Source: Bacilli bacterium (GTDB taxonomy: Bacteria; Bacillota_I; Bacilli_A; RFN20; CAG-826). Taken from it: a stretch of 64,000 nucleotides of DNA. Under the pieces are notes generated by a model. That model searched no databases, had not been told where the DNA came from, and saw only the letters and a list, made by a program, of their open reading frames with translations. The stretch covers positions 1 to 64,000 of the forward strand of contig JAZQOV010000003.1 in assembly GCA_045628045.1 (NCBI GenBank), given 5' to 3'. Of this stretch, positions 42,385 through 51,294 are shown in pieces. Both the position numbers and the translations under genes were made by a program. Each line of letters opens with the position of its first letter. Position 1 is the first letter of the stretch.

Positions 42385-42480
42385 TACTTTCTCACTAAGG
42401 ACTCGCTATTAAGGTGTAATGACAAAGTCATTAACTTGATAAACCTTCTCTATGCGGTTGTAGCTCGTGAGGCGACAACG
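42385..42480 (-). ncRNA. L21 leader (ribosomal protein autoregulatory RNA)
   Basis: CAACCGCAUAG..AGG..CACCU..UAGCGAGUC elements directly upstream of rplU. Confidence 0.75.
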
Positions 42481-44781: not shown

Positions 44782-45209
44782 TTCTTTTCTCCAAATTTTT
44801 CTAAATATCTTTCTAAAATGACAACTGCTGCCATTTCATCGATAATTTCTTTTCGTTTCTCGTAGCTTAATCCAGTTACTTTTAACTTTTCGTCAGCCTC
44901 GATTGTTGAATAACTTTCATCAATCATTTCGATGTGAAGTTCTGGATTAGATTTTATTAAATCATCTCTAAAACGAAGACAACTTTGAGCATGTGGGGAA
45001 ACGTCTCCTGAAGAATATAAAGGCATTCCTAACGCAATAGTTTTAATGCCTTCTTTTTTACAAAGTTCAAGAACATGTTCTCTTGCCTTTTTAAAGTTGC
45101 CAGGCTCAAATCTAAAAGTCTCAACGCCATGTGCTGCGATTCTTAAAGAATCGGTTTCAGCAATTCCGATAGTTGTAGTACCTAAATCTAAACCGAGAAT
45201 TTTATCCAT
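44778..45209 (-). CDS. ruvX: YqgF/RuvX pre-16S rRNA nuclease
   Basis: ILGLDLG..IGIA, GMP, DESYST and ID..AA..IL motifs. Confidence 0.93.
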   Translation of the reverse strand: MDKILGLDLGTTTIGIAETDSLRIAAHGVETFRFEPGNFKKAREHVLELCKKEGIKTIALGMPLYSSGDVSPHAQSCLRFRDDLIKSNPELHIEMIDESYSTIEADEKLKVTGLSYEKRKEIIDEMAAVVILERYLEKFGEKK

Positions 45210-47809
45210 TATTTAATAAGTCCTTTAAACGTTTCAAAGGCTTCTGGAAGTTTTGAAAGTAAACGTCCACGACCATTTGCCATATTTGGACGCCCTCCGC
45301 CACCGCCACCTAAAACTTTAGCAACTTCTCTTACTAAATCTCCGGCCTTATTATTTTCAAGTGCTTTTCCGCCTGCAAAAATAGCAATTGGAAGTTCACC
45401 ATCTTGTCCACCAACAAGAAGAATGACGTAGTCATTAAATTTAACTTTTAATTCATCGCCAATGGAATTAATGTTGTCCATTGAGTTGCCTTCAAAGTGT
45501 TTGCAAAGAACTTTATAACCTTTAATTTCTTCAAATTCTGCTTCAACATTTGCAGCATTTTGATGTGAAATTTTGTCCATCATTGAATCAAGTTTTTTAT
45601 TAGCTTCATTTAACTTATTTAATAAGTCATGTGCACGCGCTAAAGCTTCTTTAGCATTTGTGCATCCAATTGACTTACATACAGCCATTAAAGCATCTTC
45701 CTTCTCTTTGAGAAGCTTGTAGCCACCAATTGATGATCTTCCTTGAATTCTACGGACTCCTGCAGCAACAGAAGATTCAGATTCGATTACAAATACGCCA
45801 ATGTCTGAAGTATTTTTAACATGGCAGCCACCGCAGAATTCAATAGATTCATTACCGAATTTAACAACACGGACTGAATCACCATATTTTTCTGAGAAGA
45901 ATGCTTTAGCTCCAAGTTTGCTTGCTTCTTCCTTATTCATAACTTTGATATCAGATGGAATTGCTTGAGCAATTAATTTATTAACTTCTGCTTCAATAGC
46001 ATGAAGTTGCTCATCTGAAATCTTCTCATAATGGTTAAAGTCAAATCTCATGTATTCATCACATACAAAAGAACCCATTTGTTTAATTTGATTGCCTAAA
46101 ACTTTATCAAGCGCAGTTTGAAGTAAGTGAGTTGCAGAGTGATTTCTTTCAATAAGTTTACGTTTTTCAACATCAAGTGAAACATGTAATTTATCACGAA
46201 CTTTAACGCTTCCTTTAATAACTTTTACTGAATGTAAATGTTGTTTATTAGGAGCTTTTTGAGTTGAAATAACTTCTAGTTCAACATCTTTAGATGTTAA
46301 TTTACCTGTATCGGCGATTTCACCACCCATTTCAGCATAGAAATTTGTTTTATCAAGAATGACTTCGCCTTCATCAGAAATGGCGTCCACTTTAACACCG
46401 TCTTTAAATAAACCGATGACTTTTGCGTCGAGTTCATCGTGCTCATAAACAAACTCTGAAGGTTCCTTAAAATCAAGAAGATCTTTAGATTGTTTGTGCA
46501 TGGATTGTTCACCAGAACGAGCATTTCTTGCTCTTTCTTTTTGAGCTTCCATTTCTTTTTCAAAGCCTTTTTCGTCAACTTCAACACCCATTTCTTTACA
46601 AATATCTTTTGTTAAATCAAGTGGGAATCCGAAAGTGTCATAAAGCATAAAAGCATCTTTCCCATCAAGGACTTTTTTGCTTTCAAGCTTTTCACGAAGC
46701 AAAGCTTCGCCACTCTCTAATGTGACAATGAACTTTTCTTCTTCAGCCTTTAACATTTTTGAAATATGTTCAATTTTATCCATGTATTCTGGATAGAATT
46801 CTTTGTATTTCTCTGCGACGACTGGAACAAGAGTGTACATAAATGGTTTATGAATTCCGATTTGTTTTGCAAATCTCATAGCTCTACGGACAAGTCTACG
46901 TAAAACGTAGCCACGTCCTTCATTTGAGAACATTTCTCCATCGCCAATTGCAAATGTAACAGCACGAATATGGTCTGCAATAACTCTGTAAGGAGTCAAA
47001 TTTGGTGCTTTATAAGGGACACTTGCAATCTTTTCAACAGCTTTAATAATTGGTTCAAATAAATCTGTTTCAAAGTTTGTGTCAGTTTCTTGCAAGACTG
47101 ATGCAATTCTCTCTAAACCTGCACCAGTATCAATGTTTTTAGATGGTAATTCTTTGTATTCACTACGTGGAATTCCAGGTTGAGCATTAAATTGTGAGAA
47201 AACAATTCCCCAAATTTCAATGTATCTATCGTTTTCAATTTCTTCACGTAAGAGTTTTTCTCCTAAGTGATTTGGATCGTATTTTTCACCACGATCAAAG
47301 AAGACTTCAGTGTTTGGGCCTGCTGGACCTTCACCAATTTCCCAATAGTTTCCTTCAAGTGGAATAAGATGTGATTCTTCAACACCTTGTGCAAGCCAAA
47401 GTTTATGAGTTTCTTCATCAATTGGGTTATAAGTAAAATAAAGTTTATCTTTTGGCATTTCGAATTCTTTAGTTAAAATTTCAAAAGCCCAAGCAACAAC
47501 TTCTTTCTTAAAATAATCTCCAATTGAGAAGTTTCCAAGCATTTCAAAAAGAGTTTGATGTCTAGCTGTAAAACCAACGTTTTCAATATCGTTTGTACGA
47601 ATTGATTTTTGAACGTTTGTGATTCTACGAGTTGGAGGAACTTCACTTCCATCCATATACTTCTTTAATGCAGCAACACCCGAGTTAATCCAAAGTAAAG
47701 ATGGATCATTATAAGGAATAAGGTTTGCTCCTTTTTCAATATGGTGTCCTTTTGATTCAAAGAATTTTAACCATGTTTCTCTGATTTGTTGACCTGTTAA
47801 TTTCTTCAT
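45209..47809 (-). CDS. alaS: Alanine-tRNA ligase
   Basis: QKSIRTNDIENVG, FEMLGNFS, IDTGAGLER, NHSATHLL..CGGCH editing site, GGGGG C-Ala. Confidence 0.98.
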   Translation of the reverse strand: MKKLTGQQIRETWLKFFESKGHHIEKGANLIPYNDPSLLWINSGVAALKKYMDGSEVPPTRRITNVQKSIRTNDIENVGFTARHQTLFEMLGNFSIGDYFKKEVVAWAFEILTKEFEMPKDKLYFTYNPIDEETHKLWLAQGVEESHLIPLEGNYWEIGEGPAGPNTEVFFDRGEKYDPNHLGEKLLREEIENDRYIEIWGIVFSQFNAQPGIPRSEYKELPSKNIDTGAGLERIASVLQETDTNFETDLFEPIIKAVEKIASVPYKAPNLTPYRVIADHIRAVTFAIGDGEMFSNEGRGYVLRRLVRRAMRFAKQIGIHKPFMYTLVPVVAEKYKEFYPEYMDKIEHISKMLKAEEEKFIVTLESGEALLREKLESKKVLDGKDAFMLYDTFGFPLDLTKDICKEMGVEVDEKGFEKEMEAQKERARNARSGEQSMHKQSKDLLDFKEPSEFVYEHDELDAKVIGLFKDGVKVDAISDEGEVILDKTNFYAEMGGEIADTGKLTSKDVELEVISTQKAPNKQHLHSVKVIKGSVKVRDKLHVSLDVEKRKLIERNHSATHLLQTALDKVLGNQIKQMGSFVCDEYMRFDFNHYEKISDEQLHAIEAEVNKLIAQAIPSDIKVMNKEEASKLGAKAFFSEKYGDSVRVVKFGNESIEFCGGCHVKNTSDIGVFVIESESSVAAGVRRIQGRSSIGGYKLLKEKEDALMAVCKSIGCTNAKEALARAHDLLNKLNEANKKLDSMMDKISHQNAANVEAEFEEIKGYKVLCKHFEGNSMDNINSIGDELKVKFNDYVILLVGGQDGELPIAIFAGGKALENNKAGDLVREVAKVLGGGGGGRPNMANGRGRLLSKLPEAFETFKGLIK

Positions 47810-47816
47810 TTTTTGG

Positions 47817-47977
47817 CCTCCTAAACAAAATAAAAAAGTATCAATTAGGAACGAGTTAATCGCGGTACCATCCTAATTCAATACTTTGTATTGCACTTCA
47901 TTAATTTGTCCTTAACGCAGAACTACGTCAACTTTCATTGACTCCAAAGGAGTAGCATTACGTTCCTTTATGGGAGT
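47817..47977 (-). ncRNA. T-box riboswitch (Ala, GCU specifier) with ultra-short Stem I; probably translational
   Basis: T-box AAUUAGGA-UGGUACC-GCG..CGU-UCCUAAUU; Stem II GUCAA/UUGAC; Stem IIA/B GUUCU-GCGUUA-AGGAC; Stem III CAAUAC/GUAUUG; TATAAT at 47984-47989. Confidence 0.88.
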
Positions 47978-48072
47978 TCTATAATTATACACTGAATTCA
48001 AATTCAGTAAACAAATTTTAATAGCAATTTATTTTAAATAAGATAAAATAATAAGCAAGGTAGGAAGCAAAA

Positions 48073-48144
48073 ATGATTACTAATTGCATTTCAAAAAATA
48101 GTAAAGTCAATGCTTTTTACTTTGGTTATTTTTACTATAGGTAA
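48073..48144 (+). CDS. Phe/Tyr-rich leader peptide MITNCISKNSKVNAFYFGYFYYR (23 aa)
   Basis: AGGTAGGAAG upstream of the ATG; 7 of 8 consecutive codons are Phe/Tyr; precedes an attenuator and an aromatic-amino-acid-type ABC importer. Confidence 0.75.
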   Translation: MITNCISKNSKVNAFYFGYFYYR

Positions 48145-48146
48145 TT

Positions 48147-48233
48147 GTTTCCTGCTGTAAAAATAATTGGTGGGAGACTTAAGTTGAACACCAAGCAAAG
48201 ATAGCCCGGTGTTCACTCCCGGGATTTATTTTT
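48147..48233 (+). promoter_or_regulatory. Transcription attenuator (mutually exclusive antiterminator and terminator)
   Basis: GTTTCCTGC/GTGGGAGAC; GGGAG+TGAACACC/GGTGTTCA+CTCCC; CCCGG/CCGGG plus TTTATTTTT. Confidence 0.65.
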
Positions 48234-48251
48234 GTAAAGGAGTTATTAATT

Positions 48252-49244
48252 ATGAAGAAAACAAAATTGATCTCACTACTTGCTTTAGCAACTGCTGCGG
48301 CAGGACTTGCTTCATGCGGTAACAAAGCCAAATGGCAAATTGGTATTCTTTTACCAGTCGAACACAATGCGCTTCAATCTTGTGCAGATGGATTCGTTGA
48401 AGGATTAAAAGAAGCTGGACTCAAAGAAGGTACAGATTTCTCCGTCGAATTTAGAAATGCTGCAGGCAAAGATGCTGATTTACAAAACTTTGCAAAGCAA
48501 CTTGTCGCTTCCAAAGATATGACCTTTGGTTTAGGAACAGGTGCATCTCAAGCATTAAAATCTGCATCAATTGACAAAGGATCACTTAATCCGGTTTTAT
48601 TCTCTGCAGTTACTGACCCAGTTGATGCTGGATTAGTTGAAAGCTTAGAAAATGGCAAAGGTTTTGTTACAGGTTCAAGTGATGCTCAACCAATTGCTGA
48701 ACAAATCGCTTTAATTAAAGAATGCCTTCCTGAAGCTGACAAAATTGGAATTATTTACACACAAAGTGAAACAAATTCCATTGTTCAAGCTGACCAAGCT
48801 GAAGCTGCCGCAAAAGCTGCAGGCTTAGAAGTTGTTAGACAAACAGTTACAGGCCCAGGAGACATTAATACTGTCGCTCTAGCTTTAGCTAGTGTTGATG
48901 GAATGGACGCAATTTATGTTCCAACCGACAACAATATTGCAGCAAATATGAATGCTGTTAAGGAAGCAGCAAACTCTAAACATGTTCTTGTTGTTGCAGG
49001 TGAAGAAGGTATGCTTTCTACCGGTGGTCACATCACTCTTTCTATCGATTATAAAGAATTAGGAAAACGTACAGGCGAAGTCGCTGCTCAAATTTTAAGA
49101 GGCGAAAAGAAAGTCTATGAAGTTCCTGTTATTACAATGACAAAAGAAGACTGCAAATTAGTCTATAGTAGCGTAAATCTTGCCGCTTCTGGAATTGTTC
49201 TTCCACAAAGCGTTTTAGATAAATGTGAGGATATGTCTAAATAA
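48252..49244 (+). CDS. ABC substrate-binding lipoprotein, putative Trp/Tyr/Phe importer (ABC_sub_bind, TrpX-like)
   Basis: Lipobox LASC; EHNAL..GF, PVLFSAVTDPV.AGLV, TGSSD, E.NS, YVPTDN and IDY..LG motifs. Confidence 0.88.
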   Translation: MKKTKLISLLALATAAAGLASCGNKAKWQIGILLPVEHNALQSCADGFVEGLKEAGLKEGTDFSVEFRNAAGKDADLQNFAKQLVASKDMTFGLGTGASQALKSASIDKGSLNPVLFSAVTDPVDAGLVESLENGKGFVTGSSDAQPIAEQIALIKECLPEADKIGIIYTQSETNSIVQADQAEAAAKAAGLEVVRQTVTGPGDINTVALALASVDGMDAIYVPTDNNIAANMNAVKEAANSKHVLVVAGEEGMLSTGGHITLSIDYKELGKRTGEVAAQILRGEKKVYEVPVITMTKEDCKLVYSSVNLAASGIVLPQSVLDKCEDMSK

Positions 49245-49246
49245 AT

Positions 49247-50236
49247 ATGCTAGATGTTATTATTAATATTTTAACTTCTGGTCTTCCTTGCGTATTACTT
49301 GCGCTTGGCATTTTCTTAACCTTTAGAATACTTGATTTTGCAGATTTAACTGCCGAAGGCAGTTTCTTAATTGGTGCTGCCGTTTCAGGATTACTTATTG
49401 TTAACGGAGTTAATCCTTGGATTGCAACATTTTGTTCATTCTTAGCAGGCGGAGCTTGCGGAGTTATTACAGGTGTTTTAAATCGTTATCTTAAAATACC
49501 AAAACTATTAAGTGGAATTATTACAATGACCGCCTGCGCTTCAATTGCAATGTTAATTATGGGTGCCCAAAAAGGAAACTCCACTCTATTTGCATCACAA
49601 ATTACATTTACAAACATTCAAAAAGGCGGAACAAGTCAAACAATTTACACATTATTTGCGCCTTGGAAATTTGTTGAAGGTTATAACCAATGGATTATTG
49701 CTTCACCTTTAGGTGAAATCATTAAAATCCTTGTAATGTTATTTGTTGTCTTAGTAATTATGTTCGGTATTTATTTCTTCTTTGGAACTGAATACGGAAT
49801 GGCAATTAGAGCAACAGGTTTAAATGAAAACATGTCTAATTCTCAAGGCATCAACGCAAATATAACAACTATTGTTTGTATCGCAATTTCAAATGCTTTG
49901 ATTGCTCTTGGTGGCTCACTTTATGTTCAAGATGCAAAAACTGTATCCACCGTTTCTGCGGCTGGTTACTTAGTAATTGGTCTTGCTTCAATCCTTATTG
50001 GAGAAGCCATATTCGGAAAAAGAACATTTAAGAACTGGATTATTTCCGTTGCTTTAGGCGCAATTGTTTACTTTGTAATTATTACAATTGCTACTAGACT
50101 TGGTCTTCCAACTGAACTTAAGAGCTTGCTTTATGCAGTGCTTATTACAATTGCACTTTGCTTGCCTCTTATAAAATCTGGCTTTAAAAAGCTATTTCAT
50201 ATTAAACAAGACATCGCTTCGGAGGTAAGAAAATGA
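49247..50236 (+). CDS. ABC permease (TrpY-like)
   Basis: FRILDFADLTAEGSF, LLSGI, GMAIRATG.N and GLASILIGE motifs. Confidence 0.9.
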   Translation: MLDVIINILTSGLPCVLLALGIFLTFRILDFADLTAEGSFLIGAAVSGLLIVNGVNPWIATFCSFLAGGACGVITGVLNRYLKIPKLLSGIITMTACASIAMLIMGAQKGNSTLFASQITFTNIQKGGTSQTIYTLFAPWKFVEGYNQWIIASPLGEIIKILVMLFVVLVIMFGIYFFFGTEYGMAIRATGLNENMSNSQGINANITTIVCIAISNALIALGGSLYVQDAKTVSTVSAAGYLVIGLASILIGEAIFGKRTFKNWIISVALGAIVYFVIITIATRLGLPTELKSLLYAVLITIALCLPLIKSGFKKLFHIKQDIASEVRK

Positions 50237-51294
50237 TTGAATTAACAAATTTAACAAAGATCTTTAACCTCTCTGGAGATGAAAGAGACAAACGTGTTGC
50301 TTTAAATCACGTTAATCTAAAGATTAACGATGGCGAATTTGTCACTATTATTGGTTCAAATGGGTCTGGTAAAACCACCACTATGAACTTAATCGCTGGC
50401 ACTTACACACCAACTGAAGGTGAAATTTCACTTTCTGGTATGCCTATTTCCGAAATGAAGGAATTTAAACGTGCTAAATACTTTGGCCGTGTATTCCAAG
50501 ATCCAAGAATGGGCACAACAGGCGAAATGTCTGTTCTCGAAAACCTTGAAATTGCTTATAGACGTGGAAAACACCACTCGCCAGTTAAATGGGGTTTCTC
50601 AAATGAAACTGTTAGGGATTACTTTATTTCTCAAGTCAAACAATTTGATTTAGGACTTGAAGATAGAATGAATCAAAAAGTTGGCCGTATGTCAGGAGGA
50701 CAACGTCAAGCATTAACTTTGTTAATGGCTGCAAATGATTCACGCATCGATACAAGAAAAGAATTTATTCAAATGAACTTTGATGTGGCTTCTGGCCCAC
50801 TTAATATTGAATTAAGAAACACTAACGATAAAACTAAACAAAACGAAATCAAAAATAAGTTGAAACAACTTAAAAAAGATTGCATAAGTAAAGCTGGGAA
50901 ATTCTATGATGAAGCAAAAGCTGAATATCTTAAAAAGATTACAAAAAATGCAACAAAAGAAGAAAAACTCAATGCTTTAGTTGATTTATCAAATAAACTC
51001 CATGATTACAACGGAGACAGAAAGATTTTGCTTCTTGATGAGCATACTGCTGCGCTTGATCCTAAAACAGCTAAAAAAGTTTTGGAACTTACAAATAAAA
51101 TTGTAAGAGCAAAAAAATTAACTACTCTTATGATTACCCACAACATGAAAGATGCTATTACTTATGGTGATAGATTAATCATGTTCCATCATGGACAAAT
51201 CATTCATGATTTCAAAGGTAAAGAAAAATCCAAACTTACTGTTGATGACTTATTAACACTGTTTGAAAAGGCAGATAAGGCAGACGAAAAGTAA
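50233..51294 (+). CDS. ABC ATPase (TrpZ-like) with an ~95-aa insertion
   Basis: GSNGSGKT, RVFQDP, MSGGQRQ, LLLDEHTAALDP and ITHN motifs. Confidence 0.9.
   Translation: MIELTNLTKIFNLSGDERDKRVALNHVNLKINDGEFVTIIGSNGSGKTTTMNLIAGTYTPTEGEISLSGMPISEMKEFKRAKYFGRVFQDPRMGTTGEMSVLENLEIAYRRGKHHSPVKWGFSNETVRDYFISQVKQFDLGLEDRMNQKVGRMSGGQRQALTLLMAANDSRIDTRKEFIQMNFDVASGPLNIELRNTNDKTKQNEIKNKLKQLKKDCISKAGKFYDEAKAEYLKKITKNATKEEKLNALVDLSNKLHDYNGDRKILLLDEHTAALDPKTAKKVLELTNKIVRAKKLTTLMITHNMKDAITYGDRLIMFHHGQIIHDFKGKEKSKLTVDDLLTLFEKADKADEK

Follow-up and report, generated by a model that had tools for sequence, protein, structure and literature searches.

How is the uptake of aromatic amino acids controlled in a bacterium that probably depends on it? 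This question is raised by a locus in the window, that is, the 64,000-nucleotide stretch of the Bacilli bacterium contig JAZQOV010000003.1 that was analysed here. A leader region is flanked divergently by alaS, encoding alanyl-tRNA synthetase (45209-47809, - strand), and by a three-gene ABC importer operon (Table 1). The importer's binding protein is the only PF04392 match in the source genome, which has a size of 1.07 Mb and a G+C content of 33%. In this genome, which is 96% complete, searches for EPSP synthase, chorismate synthase, prephenate dehydratase and prephenate dehydrogenase returned no match; searches for the same four families were positive in 14 of 14 control genomes. The absence of these families suggests that uptake is likely the sole source of aromatic amino acids, and, judged by its gene content, the organism is likely an aromatic amino-acid auxotroph. 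The importer ATPase carries an insertion of about 100 residues (about 165-263) that separates its two matched stretches.

T-box control of the importer was considered and rejected, because the only T-box (RF00230) match between 47780 and 48300 lies on the - strand in front of alaS. An earlier reading of the same DNA made from the letters alone (the sequence-only reading) had likewise seen no T-box consensus in the leader. The alaS T-box lacks most of stem I, scores 56.6 bits against a gathering score of 93, and is located outside the attenuator described below, though within the same intergenic region. Four full T-boxes are present elsewhere in the genome, and an ordinary ribosomal protein L21 leader (Rfam RF00559, above cut-off) is found at 42388-42469 on the - strand. 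The window's leader itself had no match in Rfam at the cut-offs, and nothing meaningful appeared at E values up to 10.

In the leader, a short ORF rich in Phe/Tyr codons is combined with six RNA segments that overlap one another. We propose, with a probability of roughly 0.85, that it acts as a ribosome-coupled transcription attenuator, which would switch on the importer only when charged tRNA-Tyr, and probably also tRNA-Phe, is scarce. The ORF had been claimed by the sequence-only reading as a 23-codon frame with an aromatic end (48073-48144). We found it as described, with Phe or Tyr at seven of the last nine sense codons. To assess its rarity, we scanned short ATG ORFs in the 230 upstream regions of the same genome (those of genes preceded by 150 or more non-coding bases). 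At least seven Phe/Tyr per nine codons occurred in one region, that of the window's leader, and in 4 of 11,500 base-shuffled regions. The scan for codon runs of other amino acids gave no convincing second attenuator in this genome. The ORF follows a purine-rich ribosome-binding site and is probably translated. The possible -10 hexamer in front of it is not listed by a promoter scan; by eye, several relatives show a clear -10-like hexamer at similar spacing before the leader ribosome site.

Table 1 Features of the leader and its neighbours; positions are those of the window.
Feature	Position	Strand	Remark
Shortened T-box leader of alaS	47844-47983	-	Rfam RF00230, 56.6 bits, E 9e-12
Possible -10 hexamer	48044-48049	+	5/6 to consensus; putative, read from sequence
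Ribosome-binding site of leader ORF, purine-rich	48062-48065	+	Read from sequence
Leader-peptide ORF	48073-48144	+	23 sense codons + TAA, ATG start
Control codons 15-22	48115-48138	+	3 Phe + 4 Tyr
Segment A	48124-48141	+	Strand of the control codons; if uncovered, partner of 48151-54 and 48157-68
Segment B	48147-48168	+	48147-56 pairs with C (read-through), otherwise 48151-68 with A
Segment C	48167-48178	+	Pairs with B (read-through) or D (termination)
Segment D	48185-48194	+	5' strand of the antiterminator; either paired with E or held by C
Terminator hairpin	48205-48223	+	48205-09 with 48219-23
Segment E	48208-48215	+	Overlaps terminator 5' arm and loop
U-rich tract	48225-48233	+	8/9 T; predicted 3' end of attenuated RNA; read from sequence
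PF04392 substrate-binding lipoprotein	48252-49244	+	330 aa; Glu251 and Tyr267, tyrosine-type pocket by sequence
ABC permease	49247-50236	+	329 aa; weak matches to ABC permease models
ABC ATPase	50233-51294	+	353 aa

Three pairings had been claimed downstream of the control codons: an 'A:B' stem of 48147-55 with 48170-78, an antiterminator and a terminator. All three exist in the window. Two helices had been missed, 48124-41 with 48151-68 and 48167-72 with 48189-94. In the segment naming of Table 1, the B:C helix joins 48147-56 to 48169-78, the C:D helix 48167-72 to 48189-94, and the D:E helix 48185-92 to 48208-15, the last being extendable by 48172-76 with 48216-20. The terminator is modest, with five G-C pairs and a nine-base loop; a single A separates it from the eight T in nine bases at 48225-33. 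A simple terminator scanner (loop limit 8) does not list the 48205-23 hairpin. Five overlapping pieces of the leader gave folding z-scores of -2.5 to -3.4.

For covariation, we aligned 13 leaders of the genus. From this alignment, RNAalifold returned unprompted the three elements of the terminated state: A:B (its inner helix), C:D and the terminator. In this state, 93.7% of cells were paired and 7 of 17 pairs had changed on both sides; the read-through state (B:C plus D:E) gave 95.4% and 4 of 17. Controls with slid partners paired in 20-56% of cells. As the 13 rows are kin from one genus, shuffle counts are not to be read as probabilities, and as the structures were moreover taken from one row, the covariation counts support the helices and do not prove them. 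Among the individual helices, the outer A:B core (seven pairs) was 94% paired with one pair changed on both sides, and the inner A:B helix (four pairs) was also 94% paired. The B:C core of eight pairs was paired in 99% of cells, with five pairs invariant and one changed on both sides. For C:D (five pairs) and D:E (seven pairs), pairing amounted to 97% (likewise 97% for the three inner C:D pairs) and 96%, with two and three pairs changed on both sides, respectively. The five terminator pairs were 88% paired, three of them changed on both sides. The outer antiterminator extension (48172-76/48216-20) paired in 74% of cells, with no compensatory change.

We then folded the window's leader with the ribosome footprint masked, using a transcript ending at 48196 and nine bases protected past the A-site codon. 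This check had been suggested together with the original claim, and the nascent transcript indeed flipped between B:C and C:D. With the ribosome on codons 19-21, B:C formed with a probability of 0.96-0.98 (0.86-0.98 for codons 18-21), and C:D formed with a probability of 0.94 once the ribosome had reached codon 23 or the stop codon. Codons 17 and 22 gave mixtures of folds, and stalling on codons 15, 16 or 22 produced no clear switch. In a partial length series with a 12-base footprint, the range of read-through codons lay one codon upstream, starting from codon 17. This range is only three to four codons wide and moves with the footprint assumed. Without a ribosome, A:B and C:D formed at length 48196 (C:D probability 0.88); at the shorter length of 48180, B:C formed first (0.99).

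These foldings fit the following relay. When amino acids suffice, the ribosome would reach the stop codon and cover the 5' part of segment B; C would then pair with D, D could not capture E, and the terminator would form, with termination predicted near 48230. A ribosome stalled on the late control codons would cover segment A only, and B would capture C. D, left free, would pair with newly made E and block the terminator. Full-length equilibrium folding favoured D:E in every ribosome state (probability 0.67-0.99, terminator at most 0.32). Once E exists, equilibrium thus lies with D:E, and termination would require C:D to stay kinetically trapped up to the completion of the terminator. That C:D persists for the ~35 bases concerned during co-transcriptional folding appears plausible. 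In a crude automatic survey of 35 leaders, no terminator was called in 8 and a wrong hairpin in several; among the 27 leaders with a terminator, the expected direction was obtained in 16 and the reverse in 3; given its crudeness, this survey carries little weight. Most distant leaders with a call in this survey had a hairpin followed by a U run.

Next, we asked how widely the leader occurs. The binding protein was found in 36 of the 61 genomes searched. From the best 30 of 39 matches, one of which had no upstream DNA, we obtained 29 relative loci including the window. At least six Phe/Tyr in nine codons preceded the importer in 24 of these 29 loci (at least seven in 23), and five had no leader; the leader-bearing loci include other families of the order. 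Aligning the upstream regions of orthologues, as had been proposed, thus recovered the Phe/Tyr-rich ORF in 24 of 29 loci and, in the 13 aligned leaders, helices with compensatory changes. The earlier claim that a leader-peptide attenuator, and not a T-box, stands before the importer is supported. A distant set consisted of 79 loci among the matches listed, of 591 confirmed, and comprised 74 after removal of three duplicates and two loci with short upstream regions. Among these listed matches, 16 of 74 carried at least six Phe/Tyr in nine codons. The organisms named for them include Acholeplasmatales, Erysipelotrichaceae, Absicoccus, Ruminococcus, Clostridium aminobutyricum, Streptococcus henryi, Alkalibacterium and Leptolinea (Chloroflexota).

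The resulting 40 leaders (24 relative and 16 distant, the latter among the matches listed) are 16 to 36 codons long, and an SD-like 4-mer precedes the ORF in 31 of them. Their control codons are TAT (120), TAC (60), TTT (96) and TTC (22), and two leaders have a control run without any Phe. Since both synonymous codons of Tyr and of Phe are used, it is the amino acids that are conserved, not a plain U run. Counts for the three frames (298/69/66) carry a bias, since the maximum was what decided the choice of frame. A T-box-like motif was present in 13 of the 79 distant loci among the matches listed, none of which (0 of 13) had a Phe/Tyr leader. These motifs were called by a sequence pattern, and Rfam confirmed one T-box among 20 loci scanned. 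When 37 genomes of the genus were searched with a model built from the 13 leaders, 16 had a single match, always before this importer family, and there was no second copy in the window's own genome; no wider regulon was therefore found there.

Some loci combine near-identical leaders with very different importers. The L030 leader is 93% identical to that of the window and the binding proteins are 32% identical; for L023 and L011 the values are 92% and 32%, and the same pattern sets L030, L023 and L024 against L007, L011 and the window. The second binding-protein clade, to which L030, L023 and L024 belong, has no leader in L025-L028. This suggests that the leader stayed in place when the importer genes behind it were exchanged, or that the leader moved. 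At L113 (G178:C1:1237281-1237379), the gene behind a Tyr-rich leader is a different one, permease-like and by eye resembling BrnQ, so that the device also occurs outside the ABC importer. At L125 (G026:C26), the leader stands before a binding-protein gene that matches the query in two order-swapped pieces, possibly a rearranged or duplicated form.

Which amino acid is transported, and does the leader match it? The solved structures closest to the window's binding protein are CD0873 (Tyr), SP1069 (Trp) and VC_1101 (Phe). Two selectivity positions have been described in this family, one with Glu for Tyr as opposed to Ala, the other with Tyr as opposed to Gln for Trp (PMC6816091). Glu251 and Tyr267 of the window's protein align with Glu 263 and Tyr 279 of CD0873, as expected for a tyrosine-type pocket. 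Tyr267 occupies the position of Gln284 in SP1069, and against the TrpX equivalog NF041285 the protein scores 248 bits, below the required 390. The transported substrates are thus predicted from alignment, and the earlier expectation of Phe/Tyr over Trp agrees with this pocket. Among the binding proteins behind the 40 Phe/Tyr leaders (the distant ones among the matches listed), position 267 is Tyr in all 40, and position 251 is Glu in 35, Ala in 2, Ser in 2 and Asp in 1. In two Leptolinea records, an Ala-pocket paralogue follows a Phe-only leader, and the tandem paralogue next to it, which has Glu in L040 and is incomplete in L045, follows a Tyr-rich one. Each tandem paralogue there has its own leader (L040, 82-168 and 1343-1429; L045, 1253-1339 and 2496-2600). 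An exception is L021, in which an Ala pocket follows a mixed leader. From these comparisons, Tyr is the best-supported signal and substrate of the window's importer. Phe is likely the second signal, because Phe codons fall within the switching window. The idea of a dual Phe and Tyr sensor is likely to hold, but Tyr leads, given the tyrosine-type pocket, the 180 Tyr versus 118 Phe control codons in the 40 leaders (distant ones among the matches listed) and the two leaders whose control run lacks Phe.

A tryptophan branch of the family emerged from a published RNA motif. That motif, trpB (SRC-39-1, Rfam RF04312), has been reported as a strong riboswitch candidate (Narunsky et al. 2024, PMC11109978). 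According to the same report, the genes found most frequently behind it are those of an amino-acid ABC transporter; it contains a terminator and an antiterminator, and its authors left open a classic attenuator (PMC11109978). We read 14 matches to this motif, 4 of them over the cut-off; a fifteenth, L134, is the Phe/Tyr leader of L070 (all matches are loci L130-L144). In 12 of the 14, an ORF that starts with ATG behind an SD-like site, and in which two Trp codons lie three apart, ends just before the motif; this two-Trp leader is present in all four above-cut-off matches, and the remaining two have a single Trp in one case and none in the other. The Rfam model omits the ORF and is filed as a riboswitch candidate. 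All 11 binding proteins downstream of trpB-motif matches have Gln at position 267; as the matches come mostly from one genus, they are not independent. The same two-Trp leader stands before a Gln-pocket protein in Marinilactibacillus (L095). RF04312 (cut-off 59 bits) gave no match in the window's genome or leader, and in a phylum-wide draw of which 150 genomes were scored, no match exceeded the cut-off.

A second catalogued RNA may fall in the same family. sRNA_2410 (Rfam RF02863) is a confirmed, expressed short RNA of Enterococcus (Sinel et al. 2017, PMC5593968). It is described there as an sRNA, and neither 'leader' nor 'attenuat' occurs in the main text (PMC5593968). RF02863 matched Lactobacillales Phe/Tyr leaders before this importer at 6 of 16 loci scanned, one of them above the cut-off of 61 bits; it did not match the leaders of the window or of L001. 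Across the family, codons track the pocket residues as aligned: Phe-only leaders go with Ala, Tyr-rich ones with Glu, and those with two Trp, at the trpB motif, with Gln.

Other explanations of the locus have to be weighed against the relay proposed above. One of them keeps the leader as a sensor of Tyr/Phe and lets it act on translation initiation of the importer or on mRNA stability, or lets leaky termination tune the level. The modest terminator, which loses to D:E at equilibrium, and the importer ribosome site (48237-42) directly after the U tract would suit this explanation. However, a hairpin with compensatory changes and a U-rich tract are kept across the aligned leaders, and the folds contained no helix covering the importer ribosome site, so that we regard it as very unlikely. 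Slightly less likely still is the wiring of the sequence-only reading, by which a stalled ribosome covers 48147-55 and frees 48170-78 to start the antiterminator. Here the extension 48172-76/48216-20 counts in its favour, since it forms in the window, dominates full-length equilibrium folding with the ribosome at the stop codon, and keeps its three outer pairs in 11 of 13 leaders. But the extension is without compensatory change, whereas the missed C:D helix has such changes. Moreover, since 48147-55 is located past the stop codon, a ribosome at the stop covers it and one stalled on codons 19-21 does not; in masked folding, coverage began at codons 22-23 and not at the main control codons. Such a wiring would maximise read-through when the amino acid is plentiful. 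The claimed logic thus appears to be inverted, as B:C itself would favour read-through.

The least probable explanation in our view is an RNA switch answering a protein or small molecule, with the Phe/Tyr frame as a by-product of the U-rich strand needed for A:B. Pairing of the control-codon strand with an A-rich strand would be in line with this, as would the proposal of the related trpB motif as a riboswitch candidate (PMC11109978). However, coding is indicated by an in-frame ATG at varying distance, by the SD-like sites in 31 of 40 leaders (distant ones among the matches listed), by T/C variation at third positions and by a codon type that follows the pocket residue. In addition, the two-Trp leaders are not U-rich, and no conserved fold of aptamer size was present.

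Beyond the window, we consider it fairly likely that a widespread, undescribed class of attenuators replaces T-boxes on PF04392 aromatic importers from Bacillota into Chloroflexota. This class would include a Tyr-sensing attenuator; its codons would follow the pocket (Tyr/Glu, Phe/Ala, Trp/Gln) and serve as a read-out of the substrate, and the trpB candidate and sRNA_2410 would be catalogued fragments of it. If correct, classical attenuation reaches tyrosine, uptake genes and many uncultured Bacilli in which T-boxes were expected, and leader codons would predict substrates directly for a large, poorly annotated importer family. The published trpB riboswitch candidate would then be a tryptophan attenuator, and the Enterococcus sRNA family would be reassigned.

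Several known systems can be compared. CD0873 is a tyrosine-binding PF04392 protein (PDB 6HNI, PMC6816091); it shares both pocket residues with the window's protein, and its regulation is not described in the accessible text of that report. The trpXYZ operon of Streptococcus suis, of the same PF04392 family, is controlled by a T-box (PMC9382623), in whose place the window has a leader that is probably translated. For Firmicutes, His leader attenuators have been reported (PMC2965389, PMC9413887), and leader-peptide attenuation, including that in Erysipelotrichales, extends to His, Leu and Ile (PMC2965389, PMC9413887, PMC5794164, PMC5864092). These leaders concern other amino acids and mostly biosynthetic or synthetase genes. 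A near likeness by description is the uORFC-13-1 motif of Acholeplasma, a related low-GC group, where a Phe-codon uORF and a terminator are predicted before aroF (Brewer et al. 2021, PMC8632094). As described, it differs in preceding a DAHP synthase gene, in having at least one Phe codon with no Tyr run, and in being predicted only. With His, Leu/Ile and one Phe leader candidate published, the notion that such attenuators are mainly known from Proteobacteria and Actinobacteria understates the precedent in Firmicutes.

The literature searched, which was mostly open-access, did not yield any account of leader-peptide attenuation by Tyr/Phe at a PF04392 importer; comparative attenuation surveys have been published in subscription journals by Vitreschak, Lyubetsky and colleagues. 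The Rfam Phe_leader model (RF01859, cut-off 55 bits) gave no match in the window's leader at E values up to 10, and the Leptolinea leaders score weakly against it (32-34 bits). Like the enterobacterial leaders pheL-pheA (RF01859), hisL and trpL, the window's leader combines a short ORF of cognate codons, competing helices and an intrinsic terminator, and its six-segment relay resembles that of the his attenuator. Unlike them, it would sense Tyr together with Phe, and it would control an importer, not biosynthesis, in Bacilli. The classical attenuation mechanism is known; its tyrosine-led version on an importer in Bacilli is new among the literature searched.
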